This document shows positions 1 to 20,000 of a stretch of DNA of 20,000 nucleotides, in pieces. A model generated the notes under the pieces. The model did not search any database, was not told the origin of the DNA, and saw nothing but the letters and a program-made list of their open reading frames with translations. How positions within the stretch are numbered: the first letter of the stretch is position 1; every line of letters begins with the position of its first letter. This stretch comes from Folioceros fuciformis (taxonomy: Eukaryota): positions 530,983 through 550,982 of the forward strand of contig JBNGIO010006316.1 of the NCBI GenBank assembly GCA_049999805.1, in the 5' to 3' direction. Made by a program: the position numbers and the translations under genes.

Positions 1-1194
1 GGCACTGGAGCTTCTCGAGTCCTTGTATCGAGATCATCCTGGGCCAGTCTGGCGAGTATCACTCTCCATCACCGTTGAGCCCTGAATTTCCTTCACCTTT
101 TCCTCGCCTTGTTTGGTATAACCGAGTCCAGGGGGCGTGGAGGTTGGTGATGGCGTGCTCGCAAATGCTTGCAGGCCGCAAGTCGCAACGCCGTGGGTAA
201 GGTGGAGAACGGCAAGTACTTAATATACGGAGAGGTGATCACCTGGCTGGACTCCCCCCCCTGGTAACATCATTGGGGACTTGCTGTAGCTCACAAGATG
301 TCTTGACAGCATTCCGCAGGTCAGTTTTGTTGCCTTTGCCAGGTTGCTCGACCAATTCGTGGATTTGGTAAAGCGCAACGGTGAATGTCGTCCGGGGTTT
401 ACGTTCTACGATCTCGGATGCGGTTCGGGTCGCCCAGTGTTCATGACAGCGTTATTGAGCGCTGATTGCGTCAAGGCCTGTGGCATCGAGATTGTTCCAG
501 GTCTGTTCTGGAGCTTCATGAAGCTCACTTTCAGCTTAAGGGAAAATTGCTCATTTGTTCTTTTCTAACACTGTTACCAAAATGTGATGTAGGCATCCAT
601 CAGATGAACCGAGCGCTGTTGCGACTGTACGACCTGGAGGCAATACGTCTATCCCACACCCCCTGCCCTCGGCACGCCCGCGTTATCCATGCTAATCTCT
701 CTGCGTGCTCCAGGTTCGTCCATTGCTGCAACCCCGGAAGCAAAAACAAGAGATATCGTTTTTGCAAGGGGATTTCCTCAAGGTGACTAAAATTTCTGAA
801 CACTTCTTCTGCTACTCCCGCATGTATCCTCCTCTGCTGGGTGCTTACAGGACCGCGGCTGCTGTCGCTGCAGATTGACTGGTCTGATGCTGACATAATC
901 TTCACCAACGCCACCTGCTTTGAAGACCCTCTCTTCCAGGACCTGGAGGTATGTGTCCTCAGGCGCCCATACCCACCTTTTCATCCCCATGAAAATATCA
1001 CATGGAGGATTGACCGTGGCCCTTCCTTCCTGCAGAACTTGGCTACTCAGGTTCTCCGACCTGGTGCCCTCGTCATTTCTGTGACACGGTACTTCACTGG
1101 GAGTGACTGGGAGCTGCTCGACAAACAGGAGAGGAGAATGAGCTGGGCTTCCGCATTTGTCTATGTTCAAAGGAAGAAGGGGTATCGAATCTGA
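1..1194 (+). CDS. DOT1-like (class I SAM-dependent) methyltransferase, 5' end outside the window or unresolved, at least 6-7 exons
   Basis: Exons 175-234, 320-500, 593-639, 714-782, 874-948 and 1036-1194 join in frame: AASRNAVGKVENGKYLIYGE/VSFVAFARLLDQF...FYDLGCGSGRPVFMTALLSADCVKACGIEIVPG/IHQMNRALLRLYDLE/VRPLLQPRKQKQEISFLQGDFLK/IDWSDADIIFTNATCFEDPLFQDLE/NLATQVLRPGALVISVTRY...RRMSWASAFVYVQRKKGYRI*. The motif order YGE, DLGxGxG, GIE, GDF, hhFxN, LxPG, SW matches the DOT1 catalytic domain. A probable upstream exon (ALELLESLYRDHPG) lies at about 2-46, but its donor site is unresolved. Confidence 0.82.
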
Positions 1195-1237
1195 CCAAAC
1201 GGGTTTTGGGTACGAGGGCGCAGCTATTCCCTGGATG

Positions 1238-4200
1238 TCATCTTCTCACGCTTTTCTCACCCTTTCCTTTCAGATAGGCCGTCAGCTGCATCAGCCCACG
1301 GCGGAAGATCTCGAGTAGTAGGGACAAAGTCCAATTTGGCTCTGTTTGTCGCTTTCTCGCTTCACAGCTTTGAGGGAACAGAGCAGGGCCTGCAAGCGCA
1401 ATTGTTCCAGCACGTAACGGACGGACTATTTGTGGTTTGCGGACGGGAGGTAGCTTTCGTGAAGTTATCTCTCCTACAACAACTGCGTTGTGTCAAATGC
1501 TTGAACTGCAAAGGTCGAATAGGAAGAAGGATTTGAACCTGGGAAGTCGAAAATACGATCTCAAACCTGGATGGAAAGCTTGGTATCTAGTCTTCCAATC
1601 TATATCATGCAAGAGATGCTCATATGCTTTCATCTGGACCCTCAAATTTTCGTTCTCTTCTGTGACCTGAAAAGAGAGCTGCGTCAATCTTTGAACTACG
1701 CGATCATTGCACGCACGGAAATGGCTATGACTGGCACCTTACTAGGTCACAGTAGTCTACAACTTCTTCTAGCGTTGCCTGTATGAGTGCCGGTGCACTG
1801 CTTGTCTCATCCTGTCGGTAGGAGGGGGCCCTGACGTCTGGTTGGTGAACGGTGGACTTTTCAGTCATGAGCATCGTGCGGATCTCTGCTAAAGCGGTGG
1901 TGAGTAGGCCTGTGTCCACGTCGGAGTGTGCTTTCCTCTTTGGAATAATCTCTTCATGGGCAATCATCTCGTTGACAGCAGAACATAATTGTTCCAGCAT
2001 GTCATAGTTGCTTTTTGGGTGCATCTGCAGAGTAAGGGACATACATCTACCACGTCAGCTGTAAGGTTGTGAATGTCAACAAGCAACGCTCACGCATCAC
2101 AGACATTGTCGAAAGTGTGCGAGTACTCCACCATTGCCTTGCTGCTACTCAAATCTGATGGACAGGTGCTGAGAGGAGAGAGATTTTGTGGAGCTCTATT
2201 ATCTGCGTTTTCCTCTAGATATAGTCAGATATTAACGAGAGTAGTGAAACAACCGGAGCTCGGCTTTTTTTGGAAGGAGGCATACCTTCAGTTAGAGAGC
2301 GCAGGCGAGCATTCAGGAGAAGAACTTGACTCCGTAGTTGGTCACATTCAAGTCCAGATCTCTCTAGAAGTTGCTCCAACTCGTGCCTTCCTCTTTCAGT
2401 GTTGATGACGGGTCTGTTCTTGATCTGCTTTGCTCTATCAACCCACATCACAGGAACAAAACACGGTCTGATGCTAAAAGCCCGGGAATACCTCGAGCCT
2501 ACAGGTGTCTCCCAGCTGCTTATTGGGAAAATATGCTGTACTTTGTGAGGAATTTGCTACCTCGTCCCAAATCTCAGAGTGGATAGAGTCTCAGCAGCGT
2601 TGCACGAGCTGGGTGAGCAACAGCACAATAAGGTTGTCCGTGAGTTTCCACCCTGCAAGCGCAAATAGTCAGCAAGTCTGTCTCTGCTATAGCGGCACTA
2701 AGAAGGTTACTTGCAGGAAAGATAACCGACTTACAAGTGACTCTTGAAGTATACGCGTCAACTTGGAATCACGGTATGGTACATGGCTTGTTTTACCTAC
2801 GGGGCGAGCGATCAAGAGTTGCCCAATGTTTGCCCGGTGCTGGACACTAGCAAGCAGCGTATCAGGAAGGTTTTACCGGAAGTTAACGCATTTATCACGT
2901 TTCCAAGGGAGGAAAGTGATTTGTTGATGGTCTTCGCTTCATCAAGGAGCTTCCCTTCGGCACCTGTTTTGCCTAGTTTTTCTGAGCCAGCGAGATCCAC
3001 AAGGAAAATCTTCCCTCGTTTCAAGCTGGTCTCAGGGATTGGGTTAGACATGATGTGGCCAACGTTGACCGCGAAAGAGCAGCAGGTGTAGCCAGACGCG
3101 GCTCACCTTTGATTTTCAGTATTTCGTTGTTCGATCGTGAAGAGGAAGACACAGTGGCTTCTGCTGCTTCCGGGATTCATTTCTACAGATCGGCTCAAGG
3201 CGACAGCAACTTATCGCGCGTAACATTTCAAACCACTGGGATGCAGGACCCATTTTGTGATTGGATACGGGTTGCGCCAACAGCTCTATTCGCTATCCCG
3301 ACCTGGTAAACACATCGATGGCCTATGAGTGAAGCCAAAAACTACCGGACAAGCAGCCAGAAACTACTGAACAAGCCAGGTCTAATCAGAATGTCAACCA
3401 GGGAATGGCTTGCATGTTCCACCTCGAGAAGCAGAAGCACCTCTTGCTCCGTTTGCACATATTTCTGCATTGCACATTCCAAATATATCATTAGCCAAGG
3501 GCTGGGTTTCAGATGACGACAATCCAAAGTGTTACGAAACTTGAAACTCATGAAGAGGATCTGCATCATTAGAGTGAACCTCGGTGGCACCAGCTACGTG
3601 AACGCCATGTGCTTTGTCTTCCTTAACTTGGAGATTGTCTTTTGTGATGTCAAACAGATCCCTTGTTTGTGAAGAGCGGCGAAGCAAGATGAACAAAAAA
3701 GGTGCCTCTTTGTAGGGGTTCAAAGCTTGCAAAACAGTAGGGGTAAGATCTGAGGCTTTTATCACCTGATCCGCTCCATATAGATCTCCACCTGTATGAC
3801 GGGGTCAGGCAGTTACAAGGATTGAAAGGAAATCATCACTAGGTTGAGAGTGATTTGATCTTTCCCCAGATTCACCTACCACAGATAACTTGATGAAGAA
3901 CTCGTATGGACCCTCAGCATCTGCAATGAGCTTAAAAATTGTTTCAACCACCCTGGGTAACATGCCCTTAAGGTGAAGGTCCCCAGCTAGGAGATTCGGG
4001 CCCTGATGCAGACATTGTTCTGCAATGTGAGTTGACAATGCCAGCCAGCACTGCAGCAGAAAGTTCCCACCAGACTCTCGGCTAGACTCTCACATTCTTT
4101 CAGCTACCTTGCTATGGTATAAGTATGGAACCTGCAAATTACCTCCATGCTGTGCGTTTTTCCAGTCCCCGTCTGCATGACAGATGTACAGGTAAGGTGG

Positions 4201-4724
4201 CAAGAACCTACAATAAGTTGTCTGTACAACGAATGGAGAGACTGGATTAATACCTGACCATACGCAAGGATTGTCCCGTTCACAGCATTCATAGCGTCTG
4301 CGAAATAGAGCATAGCAAACGCCACAAGGTCAAGCTCATTATGGCCGATAACTGCGGCCAGCGAAAATCCTGGCCCAAACTGCGGAGGTAACAATCATGA
4401 GGTGGATTACCTTTGACAATGGGCAAAGCAACGAATTCAAACACTTCGGCTTGCGTTGAGCCATCGTAGAAAATTCTGTCAAATGAGAAAGCGACTTCTC
4501 CTTCTCTTTCATCCTGCACCAAACAATCAGCCAAGCTCCAATCGAAGAACAACAACCAAAAAACTGTCCCTCCTACTAGGGGAACTCGCGGAGGAGGCAA
4601 CGACAGCATTTACATTGAACATGATCGTTTCGGCATGTACTCCCTGCACGCAAGTAGATCCTCCCTCCTGGATTTCCCTCCGATTGACGGGCCTGAACCT
4701 CACACAGACTGTGACATTCGACAT
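1238..4724 (-). CDS. KIN1: Kinesin-1 family motor, plant KIN1/PSS1-like, about 18 exons
   Basis: ATG at 4724 ([12 protein letters not shown], the same start style as Arabidopsis PSS1/KIN1). Exons: 4724-4614, 4513-4411, 4297-4254, 4172-4143, 4002-3880, 3791-3766, 3661-3580, 3464-3423, 3302-3269, 3182-3107, 3025-2877, 2796-2735, 2652-2561, 2434-2286, 2214 to about 2100-2137 (donor ambiguous), 2024-1743, 1666-1567, 1473-1238. They give the P-loop [19 protein letters not shown], switch I NPGSSRSH, switch [42 protein letters not shown] and neck linker [11 protein letters not shown], followed by coiled-coil-like segments. If the last intron is not spliced, the stop is at 1493. Confidence 0.92.
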
Positions 4725-6239
4725 TTTCCAGAAGCTTTATCAGCTGTCCGATGGCGACGCTGTGGGAGCTGCCAGAAGGAGGGATCCCGGATCAGAACAC
4801 GAATGGCATGCAGCCTGTTCTTGTATCACACCAGTAGCAACATGCACAATCGCAGGTGTATTTCAGAGCGTGTGTAGCGTTCAGATCCTCCCAACTAACT
4901 GCCGATGACGCTGAGCATCCGTGATATACCGCACGACGAAATTCAACACACCGAGAGCGGAGGAGCCAAGCACTCTTGAGCTTGTGATGATCCGCCTTGT
5001 TCCAGCTGAGATTCGGCAGAGTGAGACGCGTAGGTGAGTTCGCCCGAAACTCTGAACCTTCGGGGCCCGAGTCGTGAGCGCTAAAACGACGTGTGTTTTC
5101 AAATTTTGTTGTGTTCGCTTTGAGCGACCGCACAGTCTCGCGTGCATGGATGACAAATGCTGAGGGGTCCTCTTTCTTCCAGGTAGTCGGAATCACAAGG
5201 CTCACAAGGTTTTCCGGTGATGATGCTGCCAAGTTGTGTGAACGTACTCTGCCTCGAGAAAAGGGATGAAGTCTGATCTCATCAGGAGACCGAAAAGGGA
5301 TGGTTGGTACCTTCCAGGCATGGCAAGGACAGAGGGGGCCAGAGCAATCATCTGACAGTCCGTGTGACGATGGCGCAGTGGGTGCCCGGTCCATTTCTCC
5401 TAGGGTGCTGCCGTAAATCCTTTGTGTGGGGATGAGGCCCGAGGGGTTAGGTTCTACAGAATGTCTTTTCCCCTTGTGCCAGGAGGCCAGTTTTTCCTAC
5501 ACGTGTATGAGCACTAGGGTAGCTGTGTCTTGCAGTAGATGGTAGAATGGCTACGATGTATGTACTGTGAAGGAGCGTCATGTGCTCGACTGTGACACAT
5601 GAGCAGAACAGAAGGGTGAGAGGTGCCGGAGCCCAGCTGGCCTGTTCAATGTTGTCCAGTTTTGTCCAGTTTAGTACCTTTGCGGACGTTGTCCACCACC
5701 ACCACCTGCTCGCCGCACTTGTGCGTTGTGCACATTGGAGGAGTGACAACCCGCAGCGGTCCTTACTAATCTGTGGCCTTGGGGGAAGGCCTCCATGTGG
5801 AAGATGGGACAGCGCAGGGAATTCATTGCCCAAGCAAGGGTCCTAGTCACCAGTGTCCCTTCAACCAGCGTGCAAGCGAGGCGAAGAATCTCTCTCCATC
5901 AGTCAGTCACAGTGCACCTGGTTTGGAGTCCCTGGTCGTGAGCTGTAGCGCACAAGAGCAGATTACGAGCGATAAGCGAAATGATGTAAATCGAGCACTG
6001 CCAGGTGTAGCATCCTGTGCTCGTGACCAAGATCAGGTTCATGCACCGGGGCACAAACTTGGCGTGTCCAACAGGCGCAATTTGTCTGGGCCTAGGGTGC
6101 GGGGTAGTTTAGCATATCCTCATTCATGAAAGTGAGTTTCGTCTAAAGTGGCTCCTTTGCAAGAAGAATCTTGGGAAAGTTTGAACACAATTTGCGATTC
6201 GACAGTGGAGCAGGCATATACAGTATGTATGTGCCTTTA

Positions 6240-7420
6240 GTATGTAGGAAGCAATATTGTTTAGAGGTTGTTGGTCTGACGGGCTGTCCCCCCTATTTCC
6301 CGTTGCAGGTTGTGGTTAAGGATGCTGGGTGAAGTCGAAATGGGAGTGGAGTTTTCCTAGTGATGGGATGATGGTGGTGATGGATATTTGCTATGTATGA
6401 TGAAGTTGTGAGTTTGACCGTCTTGTGATTTGAAATAGATAGCGTGTAGATGAGTGCAGCACCAGCAGGAGCAGAAGGAGCGGAAGTCGTTGAGGTGGCG
6501 GGCTCTGATCTGGGTGTGTGTGGGATGGGAAGAGGGCAGCAGCAGTAGGAGATCCAGGACCAGTAGCGGTAGCTGTACCAGCGTGCATGGATGTACATTG
6601 AGGAACAGGAGCAGGCCAAGGGAGTAAAAAATGAAATCCAATGATGTGAGAGACTGTGGCAGCGTTGGTGGTTGGTGTGGTGGTTGTCTGATGGTTATGT
6701 GAGGCCGGGGCCCGGGCCCTGGCTGGCCCTGGCCCTGGCCGGCCTCGAAACTATCGAAGGTGAAGACGGCAGCAGACACACGCTTCGAAAAGGGGTGCGA
6801 GGGACGGATGTCTTTTCCACTGCTTGGGTTATGGGGCAGGCTCTAGGGCTATGAAGTGGGAAGTGGTATGAAAACCGGAGGAGGAGGAAAGGGAATTGGT
6901 GGGGAATTACAGAAGAGGGACAAGTCTTGGGGTGGAGTAGTGGAGGCTGATGACTATCATGGCGCCGTCCTCACATGTGAAGGCAACGGAGTGTGCTACA
7001 GTGAGGCTGACTGTTTGCTTTTCTTGGCAAGGCAAGGCTGGTCCATGAGCAAGGGCATGGAGGGCATGGTGGAATGAGGCACACAGAGAACGTGGCTTTG
7101 GTGCAGCAGATCACATACAATGTTGCACGTTGGTCTGTGGGCATCTGGCTCCGGAGGCCATGCCGTGGGATTGTGATGAGCAGGCAGGGTGGCACTGCTG
7201 GGAGTGATGCGTTTTGTGGATGACAGGGGTGGAGCAAGGGCTGGGAGGTGGATTGGAGGCTGGGCCCAAAAATATCCGGCGGTTGATGGGTGTTGTGGTA
7301 AGTTGGGAAGCTAGGGAGCGGAAGGGAGCGGGGGTATCGGGATTTGAAGGCTTGCCAGTGTGCGGGGCCCTCCTGAGACCCCGTTTGTCGCCTGGTCGAC
7401 CAATGGGTAAATATACAATA
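6240..7420 (-). mobile_element. Possible highly decayed transposon remnant (LINE/gag-like); identity unproven
   Basis: Sustained G-rich plus strand and C-rich minus strand, broken Pro/Ser/Thr/His-rich minus-strand frames, and a degenerate zinc-knuckle-like string HQRCHSLSHHWISF near 6629-6670 (only the inner C and H of CX2CX4HX4C remain). No RT, integrase or transposase motif is seen. Confidence 0.25.
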
Positions 7421-10940: not shown

Positions 10941-13146
10941 ATGGCCGCGGAGACCGTCCCTCCTGCCGCGGAGCTGACCCCGGAGGCCACCAAGCCCGTT
11001 GCAGGGCAGGAGACCGCGCCGGCGCCACACCCGGAACCGACCAAGCCTGACGCCGCCGCCGCCGCCGCCGTCACCGCCGCTGACGCCCCCGGTGGTGTCG
11101 ATGCCGAGCCCCCGACCGCCGTGGCTCCCGCCGGCGGGGAGGAGGTCCCCGCCGAGGCCGACAAGGAGGTGGTCGCGGTGGCCTCGCTCGACAAGGAAAT
11201 TGTGCCTCCTTTCAAGCAGGAGACCTACGTCGTCTCGGAATTGAAGGACTTCGAAAAGAAGGCGCTGGAGGAGTTCAAATTGAGGATCGAGGCCGCCATC
11301 AAGGCCAACGAGTTCGTCGTCCCCCCGCCGCCTCCTCCGCCTGCTCCCAAGGAGGAGGAGATCAAGCCGGAGGAGGATAAGGAGAAAGAGGTGAAGGCAG
11401 AAGGGGAGGGTGAGGTAGAGGTTCCCGCCAAAACAGAGGAGAAGGCTGTGGAAGCAGCTCCGGCCAAGGAGGAGCCCGCCTTGGTGGAAGTTGTAAAGNN
11501 NNNNNNNNNNNNNNNNNNNNNNNNNNNNNNNNNNNNNNNNNNNNNNNNNNNNNNNNNNNNNNNNNNNNNNNNNNNNNNNNNNNNNNNNNNNNNNNNNNCC
11601 CCCGCCCCTGCCCCTGCGCCTGCGGCTGAGGAGGCCGCTGCGTCTGCTGAACCCGTCGACAAGGAAGCCCCTGTTGCGGATGACAAGGACAAGCCAGTGG
11701 AGGCCGCGCCCGTGGAGGAACCGGTGATCGTCATCGACGAGGACATCTCGCTGTGGGGCGTGCCGCTGCTGCACACCAAGGGGGACGAGCGGACCAACGT
11801 CATCCTCCTTAAATTCCTGCGCGCCAGGGACTTTAAGGTTAAGGATGCCTTCGTCATGCTCAAAAAGACCATCATCTGGAGGAAGACGTTTAACGCGGAC
11901 GGCCTGCTGGACGAGGACTTCGGCACGGAGCTCGACACTTTCGCTTTCATGTCCGGAGTAGACAAGGACCACCACCCTGTCTGTTATAATGTCCTTAACC
12001 CTTTCAAGGATAAAAAACTCCACCAGAACGCCTTCGGCAGCCCCGAGAAGATCGAGAGCTTCATCCGTTGGAGGATCCAGGTTCTTGAGAAGGGGATCAA
12101 GCACCTCAATTTCACGCCCGAGGGCCCGCACTCTATGGTTCAGATCACCGATCTCCGCAATAGCGTCCTGGAGCTCTTTCCCTTCGGTCTCCGACCTCAG
12201 GTCAAGAAGGTTCTAAATCTGCTGCAGGACAACTACCCCGAGCTCGTGGTTCGCAAGGTACGGTTCTCACTCGCTCTCCGCCTCCGGGCGCTGTATTGCA
12301 CATAGGATCAATTCCAGCTCTCCCTGGCGCTTGGCCTTTGACAGCTCATGCCTGCTTGCTGCTGTAGATCTTCATCAACGTGCCCTGGTACTTCAGCGCG
12401 CCCTACACCCTCTTCATCAGCCCCTTCCTGACGCAGAGGACCAAGAGCAAGCTCGTGGTGGCCACCGCGGGAAAGGTCACCGAGACTTTGTTCAAGTATG
12501 CTTTTACCGCTCCTTTCTTCGCTTCCTATCCTATACGCAAGCGGCTAGTTCCAGTGTCTTGTTCCACTCTTCCTCTCTGGTGGCATCTTTGATGTGATCG
12601 TATCGTTGCCTCTTAACCAGATACATCTCTCCGGATCAAGTCCCTGTTCAGTACGGCGGCTTCAAGTCGGCCAGCGAAAGCCACTTCGATGGGCTGGAAG
12701 TGCCCATCACCGAGCTCACCATCAAGGCCGGAGCCGTGGAAACCATCGAGATTCCGTCTCCCCATCAGGTAAACTTTCCCGTCTCCGTCCTCCCCCTCTG
12801 TTACTCCGCAAGCTTTTCCACCATGCCCTCTGTGGTATCCTCTTCCGGCTGACAGTTGCTGTGCCTGCAGAAGGCAACCATCTACTGGGATGTGGTCGTG
12901 GTAGGCTGGGATGTGACCTATCTTGCAGAGTATACTCCGGTGGAAGGTTACACCACCATTGTCGAGAAGTCCAAGAAAATAAGCGCCACCGAGGGGCAGG
13001 GGCCTTTGAGCCCCAGCTTTCCTGCCCACGCACCCGGCAAGGTTGTCATCACCATCGACAACTCTGCCTCCAAGAAGAAAAAGCTGGTGGTTTACAGATA
13101 CGATGTGGTGACAACGTCCTGCGAAACAACCGAACTGGCCGGTTGA
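10941..13146 (+). CDS. PATL: Patellin (acidic Pro/Ala/Glu N-terminus, CRAL-TRIO/Sec14 domain, GOLD domain)
   Basis: GCC-ATG-G start at 10941. Exons 10941-12257 (contains the N gap 11499-11598), 12368-12495, 12621-12768 and 12871-13146, all GT-AG. Patellin motifs: FKQETYVVSELKDFEKKALEEFK, ISLWGVPLL, VILLKFLRARDFKVKDAF, LLQDNYPELV-IFINVPW, ISPFLTQRTKSK, YISPDQVPVQYGG, and GOLD WDVVVVGWDV...GKVVITIDNSASKKKKLVVYRY. Confidence 0.95.
11499..11598. other. Assembly gap (100 N) inside patellin exon 1
   Basis: 100 N in the low-complexity N-terminal region. True length is unknown. Confidence 0.99.
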
Positions 13147-14789: not shown

Positions 14790-16489
14790 TCAGCAAAGGT
14801 TTTCCCCGTGGTTGGGAAACGAGAAAGAGTAATGTGATCCTCTCGGGTGAGAAGGGACAGGGGTGGGGGACACCACCGGAGATGTTTGGGTGGCTGCAGG
14901 GATGGAAGACACAACAGGAGCAGGTGGACTTACTGTGGCTAACAAGGGAGTACTTTCAGACGGTGGCGGCTCAGCAATTCTAGAATGCGCATCTCGCTTA
15001 CACACTGGACAAAAAGGTCGCCGGGTCATAAGCCACTGATCAACACAACCTGCATGGAACTCTGTACGAACGAGACGAGAGAAACATGTCAGTACCTTCA
15101 GCAAGACAGGACTCATCCATAACAAACCCAAGGAAGAACTTCTAGGGACAAAATACCTACCATGCCGGCAAGGCAACACCCGCAATTTCTCCCCAGCTTC
15201 ATAGTCTTCTAGGCAGATAGCACAAGTCTCAGCTCCAGTGTTTGTCGTGCTGTTGAAGATGAGCGAGGGAAGTGCCTTCACCTCCCTTGAGCTCATACCC
15301 AGAGACTCTCTAGCGATTGCAGCACCGAAATTTCTCCAGCCATGGTGTCGAAGTCTATGTCGGCGGACAAAGAAAAAAGTTGCAAGCACGGCTGATACAG
15401 CCAGGAGAGAGATGAAAGACACAGCCAACACCGACCAGGCTGTGTTCTCAAAGGCTGGTGTGATGTTGCAACTCACATCCGGGTTTCCCGCATATTCCAC
15501 GAGAGCCTGTCCGGATGACTTTGAGACAAAGACAGCATGGATGTTTATACCTGCTGTATTCCCCGACACTGCATCACCATAGGCAATCAAGTAGGCCACA
15601 CATGGGGTAAGCAAGACGGTCAAGCACTTCAGAATAACCCTTCAGGAACGACACACTTTCATGAATCAAAACAACATACTGGTAAGGAGATCACGGCCGT
15701 CCACATTATTGTAGATGATGACGGCAGCAAAGCCGGCATGCTGAGCATGTCGAACCTTGGTTTCAAACGTGCAGTCTCCACGAATTATAACAACAAAAGG
15801 AAGAAGATTGTATCCTGTTTCGGAGGCATTCTGAATAACCGAGCAAGCATCAGGAGGGTCTGAGACCTGCAGCTTTCCCCAAATCCCAGAGCTCGGAATC
15901 CTTGGTGCTGAAACGCAAAAAAAAACAGTGTGTGTTAAACCTCAGACGTGTTCCATCCACGTCACNNNNNNNNNNNNNNNNNNNNNNNNNNNNNNNNNNN
16001 NNNNNNNNNNNNNNNNNNNNNNNNNNNNNNNNNNNNNNNNNNNNNNNNNNNNNNNNNNNNNNNNNGTTCCATCCACGTCACATCCATGCCCAAACGGTCG
16101 ACCATCTTCCCCCACGGCGAAGATTTCCACTCCTGCCTTCACCCAAGCAAGGGGTACTGACGGGGGCATAGCTAAGGAGGGAGTTTGAATTGATCAAAGA
16201 CAACGGAAGTCCAAACTCCGAAGGCAACCTAACCACGACACACACCGTGCCGACAACACCAATACCAGCCAAGAACCGGATGTGACGCCTCACCGAAACT
16301 GGCCTCCATATCGGGGAAGGTCCAAGTCTCGTTCGCAGTAGAGACAAGCAAGATTGACGCATTGGCTCTCCCCTTGAAGAGCGTGAGGATAACAAGAACA
16401 AGACCTGCCAAGGTGATCATAATTTCCCTTCGATTAAACCGGGCGCCCCGGGTGGCAGGTTCCGGAGCCTCGCCAAGTGGGGGCGGCAT
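14790..16489 (-). CDS. RMR: RMR-type receptor homology region, transmembrane, RING-H2 protein (PA domain vacuolar sorting receptor/E3 ligase)
   Basis: Exons 16489-16294, 15907-15680, 15568-15161 and 15061-14790 join in phase. They encode a signal-like segment (IMITLAGLVLVILTLF), FPDMEASF/APRIPSSG...PPDACS, PA domain IIRGDCTFETKVRHAQHAGFAAVIIYNN, MSGN..IHAVFVSK, TM segment WSVLAVSFISLLAVSAVLATFFFVRRHR, RING-H2 CAICLEDY..LPCRH/EFHAGCVDQWL..CPVCK, and SESTPLL. The exact start Met is uncertain. Confidence 0.93.
15966..16065. other. Assembly gap (100 N) in RMR intron 1, flanked by an identical 16-mer
   Basis: gttccatccacgtcac at 15950-15965 and again at 16066-16081. Confidence 0.97.
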
Positions 16490-16937
16490 GCTAGAACCGG
16501 GTCACGACTCAAGCCCCGAGGTGCAACAGCAGCCAGAATGCTGATCTAGCCATAAAATTTCAGCTTCCCTGCATTGCTCCACCAGCCAAGCTGTTCACTC
16601 TGCTGCTGCATACACAAGAATTCCAATCTGGTGCAACAATTGGCCCGCCTGCCCCCTAGGGGAGGGTAAGCAGATGGCAGATCCGCGTCCGCCCCCCGTT
16701 CTGCCGCGCGGGCGAAGATGAGGTGGAAAAGGGCAACGATTCCGCCAACCCGCCGCTATGGGCGAGGCAGGGCTTCGAGGACTGTTTATGCTCGGCCCCG
16801 AACCCGGCGGCAACCCCCACGCTCCAACCTTCCTCCTCTTCCTCCGAGCCTGTTGAACTTTAGGCTGCTTATGTCCAACTATATCTCCGCTAACCCCTTC
16901 AACATGACACATGCATGTGCCATACCCCTGTAATTTT

Positions 16938-17291
16938 ATGGCAGATATTGTTCAGCCGAATCCGGCAGCTGCTGGCACCAGCATGGTCCCGTCCTCCGAC
17001 CAGTTGGCCTCAGCCGCGTCCACCTCACCACCTATCCCGACACAATTTCACAAAGTCTTCCTCTGGCTTTGGGTGGATGGGTTTCTCCATCTCATCTTGT
17101 ACAAAAACGCTTCCTTTGCGAGACACAAGATTAAAAATATGTCAAAACATGAAATTGATCCATCCTTGGTACCCAAAGTCCGCTACTCCGAGCTTCTCCT
17201 TCTGGCTTTCAAAGAGGCTGTCGGTGGCCCTCGTGTTATAGAATACCGCTCGTGCTTCCCCTACGTGGTCAGCACGGCCAATCTTTCATGA
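16938..17291 (+). CDS. Hypothetical intronless ORF (117 aa), unknown function, possibly TE-associated
   Basis: ATG-initiated ORF MADIVQPNP...ANLS* with a low-complexity N-terminus and a mixed hydrophobic/charged C-terminal half. No motif recognised. Confidence 0.25.
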   Translation: MADIVQPNPAAAGTSMVPSSDQLASAASTSPPIPTQFHKVFLWLWVDGFLHLILYKNASFARHKIKNMSKHEIDPSLVPKVRYSELLLLAFKEAVGGPRVIEYRSCFPYVVSTANLS

Positions 17292-17440: not shown

Positions 17441-18075
17441 AGAGCAGGAGGACATTAAGGAGAGTCCAACCTAGGTGAATGACTCTACCGAGCAAGAGGA
17501 CATTAAAGAGAGTCCAACCTGGGTGAATGAGGAGGACATTAAGGAGAGTCCAACTTGGGTGAATGAGGAGGACATTAAGGAGGGTCCAACCTAGGTGAAT
17601 GAATCTACCGAGCAAGAGGACATTAAGGAGAGTCCAACCTAGGTGAATGGCTCTATCAAGGAGCAGAGGACATAAAGGAGAGTCATTAAGGAGAGTCCAA
17701 CCTAGGTGAATGGCTCTATCAAGGAGCAGCAGGACATTAAGGAGAGTCCAACCTAGGTGAATGGCTCTATCAAGGAGCAGGAGGACATTAAGGAGAGTCC
17801 AACCTAGGTGAATGGCTCTATCAAGGAGCAGGAGGACATTAAGGAGAGTCCAACCTAGGTGAATGGCTCTATCAAGGAGCAGGAGGACATTAAGGAGAGT
17901 CCAACCTAGGTGAATGGCTCTATCAAGGANNNNNNNNNNNNNNNNNNNNNNNNNNNNNNNNNNNNNNNNNNNNNNNNNNNNNNNNNNNNNNNNNNNNNNN
18001 NNNNNNNNNNNNNNNNNNNNNNNNNNNNNGCAGGAGGACATTAAGGAGAGTCCAACCTAGATAAATGGCTCTACC
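17441..18075. repeat. Minisatellite, consensus 51 bp (aggagcaggaggacattaaggagagtccaacctaggtgaatggctctatca), about 12 visible units, interrupted by an N gap at 17930-18029
   Basis: The core gacatt recurs at 17451, 17499, 17535, 17571, 17619, (17669 and 17682 as variants), 17733, 17784, 17835, 17886 and 18037. Confidence 0.97.

Positions 18076-18623: not shown

Positions 18624-20000
<1,377 letters not shown>

Follow-up and report, generated by a model that had tools for sequence, protein, structure and literature searches.

Gene content of the locus and structure of the DOT1-like gene

The stretch of Folioceros fuciformis DNA analysed here (20,000 nucleotides, contig positions 530983-550982, hereafter the window) begins inside a DOT1-like gene on the + strand, whose first ATG lies upstream at window position -250 (= L002:7733). 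Seven exons, spliced together with the upstream DNA, give a frame of 298 aa with zero internal stops, and a product of 295 aa is an alternative form. Six introns of 74-119 nt were modelled, five of them GT-AG and one GC-AG. The parts of the gene are listed below by window coordinate, with the evidence for each.

-250..55, + strand: exon 1, coding (1..55 is its 3′ part); orthologue alignment, RNA contig
52, + strand: alternative GC donor of intron 1, frame-shifting; RNA contig joint
56..174, + strand: intron 1, GT-AG, 119 nt, phase 0; position conserved in orthologues
175..234, + strand: exon 2, gate loop and YGE motif; splice model, orthologue and DOT1L alignments
320..500, + strand: exon 3, SAM-binding motif I (DLGCGSG) and post-I (GIE); PF08123 match, RNA contig
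593..639, + strand: exon 4, helix after post-I; model, RNA contig
640..713, + strand: intron 4, GC-AG, 74 nt; 74-nt skip in RNA contig, same breakpoint in orthologue isoforms
714..782, + strand: exon 5, motif II (GDF); model, RNA contig
874..948, + strand: exon 6, DWSDAD-IIF-TNATCF; model, DOT1L alignment, RNA contig
1036..1181, + strand: exon 7, last strands, short loop and MSW (W283); model, RNA contig
1182..1273, + strand: intron 7, GT-AG, 92 nt; RNA contigs, both spliced and retained
1274..1277, + strand: exon 8, finishes the last codon and supplies the stop of the 295-aa form; RNA contig joint

Exon 1 encodes a conserved N-terminal helix upstream of the window, with LYRDHP..VWR falling within 1..55. 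In the spliced frame the motifs start at residues 120 (YGE), 153 (DLGCGSG), 177 (GIE), 217 (GDF), 232 (TNATCF) and 281 (MSW). A first-pass annotation of this DNA had reported a DOT1 motif series in a hand-spliced protein, and all the motifs it listed do lie within one spliced frame on the + strand. Its description of the gene as intron-rich is borne out by six introns with canonical ends and by orthologue alignments that span every exon junction (E 1e-60 to 1e-91). Moreover, annotated isoforms of Marchantia, Riccia, Ceratodon and Diphasiastrum break at the positions of introns 1-6 of the window gene, and these introns therefore look ancestral to land plants. The DOT1-like gene is real, far beyond chance. 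Acceptors at window 131 and 850 were discarded by eye, since both lead to stops.

The position of the C-terminus depends on intron 7. Its retention leads to a stop at 1192-1194 and 298 aa, whilst its removal leads to a stop at 1275-1277 and 295 aa. The first-pass annotation had the protein end right after the catalytic domain; the window protein ends 12-15 residues past the Trp, and the end at 1194 belongs to the intron-7-retaining form.

The gene is single-copy, as a genome search with an orthologue matched only the window locus. A search of the genome with PF08123 returned three matches, all below the cut-off, one being the window gene. The match at L003 was rejected as a second DOT1 gene, having a generic motif I and none of the other subfamily motifs in that frame; the third sub-cut-off match is L005.

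Convergent with the DOT1-like gene is a kinesin gene (PF00225) on the - strand at about 1480-4724, the N-terminus of which we take to resemble plant kinesin-1. A loose end of an RNA contig near 1485 fits an intron of this gene. Further along, a + strand gene at about 10941-13146 encodes an acidic Pro/Ala-rich N-terminus and CRAL-TRIO domains, is interrupted by an N gap at 11499-11598, and is presumably patellin-like. The - strand gene at about 14790-16490 combines a PA-domain-like part with a transmembrane stretch and a RING-H2 finger, a make-up that we assume to resemble that of RMR receptors. What is presumably a beta-tubulin gene occupies 18624-20000 on the - strand and runs past the window end. 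At about 17450-18060 a unit of roughly 50 bases is repeated in tandem, with an N gap interrupting the array; just ahead of this array a 127-codon open frame was found on the + strand (16908-17291). In the upstream DNA, two GC-rich stretches of the - strand (L002 about 100-870 and 4500-6500) have sequence in common and look like paralogous coding regions.

Membership of the DOT1 family

The encoded protein is a member of the DOT1 family. PF08123 was the best Pfam match of exon 3 alone (E 4.7e-4, 20.2 bits, under the 23-bit gathering score) and of all seven land-plant orthologues scanned (31.8-43.7 bits against the gathering score of 23), in agreement with the family first proposed for it. In these seven orthologues the match ends at profile position 149-167 of 205, and PF13847 was a second Pfam match of the orthologues. 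Motif I (153-159), post-I (177-179), motif II (217-219), YGE (120-122) and the channel residue N233 are all present in the window protein, and little or no variation in the core motifs occurs among the green sequences. N233 and F237 correspond in the alignment to N241 and F245 of human DOT1L, both of which function in the lysine channel. For fold comparisons the query was an AlphaFold model of an orthologue rather than of the window protein, namely Diphasiastrum isoform P0008, which lacks 12 residues (pLDDT 77.5). With this model, Z ranks 1-11 were all DOT1 structures. Neither the Pfam scans nor the fold searches found another class I family as best match.

The pattern of the conserved N-terminal helix was present in 7 of 10 sequences tested. 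This helix might be a partner-binding or targeting element. The window protein showed no transmembrane segment and no match to simple NLS patterns.

Affinity to the short LpDot1-like proteins

The best PDB match was 9NE1, which is LpDot1 of Legionella pneumophila, in all five sequence searches and both fold comparisons. A single plant orthologue as query matched LpDot1 at E 2e-16 and no human or yeast DOT1 at E<=1. A liverwort-only profile gave 4e-14 for LpDot1, against 5e-4 for yeast and 0.09 for human, and a green profile, with one bacterial row included, gave 146 bits for LpDot1, 44 for human DOT1L and 43.5 for archaeal aKMT, an enzyme of broad protein specificity. Even exon 7 alone had 9NE1 as its sole PDB match, albeit a weak one (E 1.2). 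The orthologue model aligned to 9NE1 with Z 25.1 and rmsd 2.1 over 190 residues, and to DOT1L with Z 20.8 and rmsd 5.3 over 227.

A comparison of conserved spacings points the same way. The distance from the channel Asn to the Trp is 50 residues in the window protein, 50-51 in all 12 green orthologues and 64 in DOT1L; by this spacing the 14-residue nucleosome-binding loop 273-286 of DOT1L is absent, and exon 7 encodes a loop without this insertion. The C-terminal helix 319-331, which in DOT1L contacts H2A/H2B and ubiquitin, is absent as well, the window protein stopping so soon after W283. Unconserved tails of 29-66 residues follow the Trp in 5 of 12 orthologues, and the orthologue tail was modelled as a low-confidence coil. 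At the offset of F131, the aromatic gate residue of DOT1L, the window protein has G115, and none of the 11 YGE-bearing orthologues has an aromatic residue five positions before YGE, although differing loop lengths make this position approximate. Moreover, the window protein has no net basic charge (K+R 37, D+E 38).

Being catalytic-domain-only, with a short loop before the SW strand, and closer to LpDot1 than to DOT1L, the protein is of the short LpDot1/protist type. The first-pass annotation had likewise placed it nearer to stand-alone proteins of protists and Legionella than to animal DOT1L, and the PDB, fold and plant-only profile scores agree. Judged from these scores and the missing elements, the gene does not look orthologous to animal or yeast DOT1L. 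The terminal MSW segment, on which that placement had partly relied, proved to be of no diagnostic value because human DOT1L carries an equivalent W305, as given in part of the LpDot1 preprint (10.64898/2026.01.11.698932). The diagnostic features are the missing loop and the missing helix, not SW.

Distribution among green plants and origin

Relatives were sought with two profile searches, both word- and length-limited, which gave 14 matches from 7,999 candidates scored and 51 matches from 8,000 scored. With exon 3 as query, four of 14 candidates were matched, all of them liverwort proteins. Named land-plant matches came from eight species, namely Marchantia polymorpha, M. paleacea, Riccia sorocarpa, Calypogeia fissa, Ceratodon purpureus, Selaginella moellendorffii, Diphasiastrum complanatum and Adiantum capillus-veneris. 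These orthologues, which represent liverworts, lycophytes, a moss and a fern, share 47-56% identity with the window model and support the land-plant source suggested for this DNA. Marchantia had one locus among the matches, MPTK1_4g21560. Thirty proteins were identified by name; outside land plants, the closest relatives were from Mesostigma, Pyramimonas and two Tetraselmis species, plus Bryopsis in the 51-match search. The Bryopsis record (P0166) joins RPA-interacting domains to a DOT1-like domain and may be a merged gene model. A full HMMER scan gave 6,676 representatives at E<=0.001, of which the best 150 were listed. The nearest ESM Atlas clusters were oomycete, diatom, haptophyte and viral DOT1.

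No seed plant occurred among the named matches of the two word- and length-limited searches (14 and 51 matches), consistent with the proposed retention of the gene in seed-free plants. Physcomitrium, Sphagnum, Ceratopteris, Chara, Klebsormidium and Chlamydomonas were also absent from the named matches of both searches; therefore, either the pattern is patchy or the searches are incomplete. That the gene had been overlooked is true in part. Selaginella moellendorffii was reported to have Dot1, and the angiosperms examined to lack it, in passages of a 2016 paper (PMC4822149) that take it as an H3K79 enzyme, and UniRef already labels the plant orthologues H3K79 methyltransferases. Excerpts of the LpDot1 preprint (10.64898/2026.01.11.698932) place a green alga among the close homologues and call the protist targets unknown. 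The passages of PMC10117894 that describe a Legionella-protist-virus clade name Amoebozoa and SAR, not green plants. Our literature search, which covered the text and open supplements of freely accessible papers, found no paper placing the plant gene in the short subfamily, tracing it to green algae or testing it. The family and part of the distribution were already known; the subfamily assignment, the vertical green origin and the loss of nucleosome-docking elements are new.

Two trees were built. FastTree, run on 193 of 203 rows (isoforms, fragments and 2 short matches were dropped), recovered a green clade with a support of 0.998. IQ-TREE was run on 56 hand-picked rows and 211 columns under LG+G4, with no mixture model and with the root not known. 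Land plants were supported at 100/99 (with no firm placement of the window gene in any one of their lineages), greens at 99/98, and greens together with other eukaryote-type rows at 100/99. The named eukaryotes in this last clade are Pelagomonas, a pelagophyte, Chromulina, Platysulcus and Amorphochlora, and it holds none of the 13 named bacterial rows. Among bacteria, relatives fall mainly in Legionellales, Coxiellaceae and Berkiella and in other Gammaproteobacteria (of 84 loci, 80 were kept). AU tests under LG+G4 rejected a grouping with the 11-row bacterial clade for land plants (p 0.00018) and for all greens (p 0.0032); therefore, bacteria-to-plant transfer is not supported. Five rows (P0014, P0015, P0022, P0116 and P0195), some of them from eukaryote transcriptome sets, form a separate short-type DOT1 clade (100/99), most with a long N-terminal extension.

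The gene was inherited vertically from a green ancestor, with green algae and then SAR protists as its relatives. An old horizontal acquisition by land plants, which had been offered as one explanation, does not survive this analysis: that early land or green plants took the gene from amoeba-associated bacteria and gained introns later is extremely improbable, for although the closest solved structure is bacterial, relatives are common in Legionellales, Coxiellaceae and Berkiella, and the DOT1 family often moves between domains (passages of PMC10117894), land plants nest within greens and greens within eukaryotes without named bacteria, and the AU tests (p 0.00018 and 0.003) go against the bacterial grouping. 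A much older transfer into eukaryotes may still have occurred, because the root of the tree is not known.

RNA contigs and splicing

The RNA data come from one shallow public run (X1), its type guessed as RNA, and consist of contigs only. As contigs drop rare variants, they show presence and cannot rank the 295- and 298-aa forms. Contigs skip introns 3, 4, 5 and 6 at their modelled lengths (92, 74, 91 and 87 nt). They also revealed the intron at 1182-1273, and a contig retaining this intron 7 is likewise present. Intron 1 is either retained or replaced by a 123-nt skip fitting the GC donor four bases upstream; these two outcomes truncate the protein to 111 and 116 aa (window 52-174; L002:8007-8157). 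Among the contigs of this one run, which lose rare forms so that absence is not implied, no in-frame intron-1 joint was found and no intron-2 joint was listed. The unproductive intron-1 forms may be regulated splicing or noise; most annotated isoforms of Ceratodon and Diphasiastrum break the core too.

These forms raise the question of whether the gene is decaying, or largely silenced through unproductive splicing, with little current function. Truncated 111- and 116-aa products in one run, and a core broken in 5 of 6 annotated Ceratodon and 2 of 3 Diphasiastrum isoforms, would fit such a course. However, the frame is intact across 7-8 exons, identity over land plants stays at 47-56% with the catalytic motifs conserved, the in-frame donor of intron 1 sits at a conserved position, and contigs of a shallow run speak for presence only. 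Decay is therefore very unlikely.

A possible link to flagellated cells

All 13 named green carrier species have, we assume, a flagellated stage. Moreover, the genome contains dynein heavy chains (9 matches above the threshold, spread over 6 contigs), as expected for a plant with flagellated sperm. The six Ceratodon records are one locus, KC19_VG231300, the only Ceratodon locus found, the tag of which presumably indicates the male V chromosome. These observations are suggestive of a link to sperm or flagella, and a role in flagellated cells or sperm is speculative. In its fullest form, the proposal would be that green plants kept an ancient second DOT1 lineage, distinct from DOT1L, as a lysine methyltransferase of flagellated cells, modifying sperm or flagellar proteins or sperm chromatin, spliced productively in the male germline, male-limited on the moss V chromosome and lost together with motile sperm; we regard this as unlikely. 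Flagellated Physcomitrium, Sphagnum, Ceratopteris, Chara and Chlamydomonas are absent from the named matches, and Acanthamoeba has a short DOT1; both count against the link. A search of the literature for antheridial expression found 'Mp4g21560' in no paper, and it had no occurrences in one supplement of PMC11371191, which may use other identifiers.

Likely substrate

The reading that we tentatively prefer, and to which we give almost even chances, is that the plant protein would be a vertically inherited, single-copy, short DOT1-family methyltransferase acting on lysines of non-histone proteins. Motif I, post-I and GDF would bind SAM, and a lysine would be methylated by way of the DOT1-type channel (YGE loop, N233, F237 and W283), most likely in non-histone, non-nucleosomal proteins rather than at nucleosomal H3K79. 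The DOT1L nucleosome-docking elements are missing, and the target may well, therefore, not be histone H3. We infer the activity, the lysine chemistry and the substrate class of the plant enzyme. Parts of the preprint on LpDot1, the nearest characterised relative (10.64898/2026.01.11.698932), report that activity towards calf thymus histones was not seen, while SFPQ was methylated at K518; the authors attribute the lack of histone activity to the absence of loop 273-286, helix 319-331 and F131. The same source considers that LpDot1 may have been retargeted after transfer, which counts against the non-histone reading.

It is doubtful, though a serious possibility, that the gene instead encodes the enzyme that writes H3K79 methylation in green algae and seed-free plants; it would dock on nucleosomes or free H3 without the DOT1L loop or ubiquitin helix, possibly in particular cell types only (spermatids, for example), and angiosperms would have lost gene and mark together. 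The protein from which loop 273-286, helix 319-331, F131 and any basic region are absent nevertheless keeps the DOT1 channel residues and comes from the only DOT1-like gene found in the genome, and the compact DOT1A of T. brucei is, by PDB title, a histone H3K76 enzyme. Precedents come from excerpts of several sources: Rv2067c methylates non-nucleosomal H3K79 (PMC10739865; 10.64898/2026.01.11.698932), H3K79me occurs in Naegleria and Thecamonas without Dot1 orthologues (10.1101/2021.11.30.470311) and in a chlorarachniophyte and a ciliate (10.1101/2025.03.17.643675), the last source also proposing a domain-only Acanthamoeba Dot1 as H3K79me2 writer, and in brown algae, which use H3K79 methylation, DOT1 has four derived subfamilies (PMC13076208). 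The lack of the gene in angiosperms (passages of PMC4822149) would fit too. Set against these are the inactivity of LpDot1 on histones and our literature search, covering the text of accessible papers and preprints, which found no report of H3K79me in a seed-free plant. A substrate other than protein, either RNA or a small molecule, is most unlikely, for whilst class I fold matches were strong too (Trm11, the 'RNA methyltransferase' 5bxy and RsmD) and PF13847 was a second Pfam match, DOT1-family lysine methyltransferases and aKMT come out best by both sequence and fold, and the YGE, N..F and SW elements are DOT1-type.

Dot1 and H3K79 methylation are commonly described as missing from plants. 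Taken together, the missing nucleosome-docking elements, the subfamily assignment and the vertical green origin put the H3K79 annotation in doubt. If the plant proteins are of the short protist/Legionella subfamily, automatic 'H3K79-specific' annotations of them are unsafe, and Marchantia (MPTK1_4g21560) would then serve as a genetic model of a subfamily that is widespread in eukaryotes. Were the protein acting on non-histone substrates, these would be the first native targets outside histones for any short DOT1 of eukaryotes; were it an H3K79 writer, plants would have had an H3K79 mark that was lost in flowering plants.

Comparison with known systems

The plant protein shares with LpDot1 a catalytic-domain-only DOT1 fold, the short loop before the SW strand, and the lack of both the C-terminal helix and an F131 equivalent. 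It differs in that LpDot1 is a bacterial secreted protein, whereas the plant protein comes from a nuclear, intron-rich gene inherited from green algae and has an extra conserved N-terminal helix; structure-based identity between LpDot1 and the orthologue model is about 26%. The sister group in the tree consists of short DOT1-like proteins from SAR protists, haptophytes and giant viruses; they carry no formal subfamily name, and passages of PMC10117894 discuss their clade.

With DOT1L and yeast Dot1 the plant protein has in common PF08123, YGE, motif I, GxE, GDF, the equivalents of N241 and F245, and the fold (Z 18-21). However, identity is only about 16-19%, and the plant protein is without loop 273-286, helix 319-331, F131 and the long extensions. 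Trypanosome DOT1A (PDB 8FJM/8FJN) is likewise a compact member of the DOT1 family, with a 257-residue chain in T. brucei, but is distant (E 0.38 with one orthologue, Z 16.9) and is an H3K76 methyltransferase by PDB title. Lastly, Sulfolobus aKMT (PDB 5FA8) is a minimal Dot1-related lysine methyltransferase of similar fold (Z 18.7-18.9), but has about 160 residues and no N-terminal helices.
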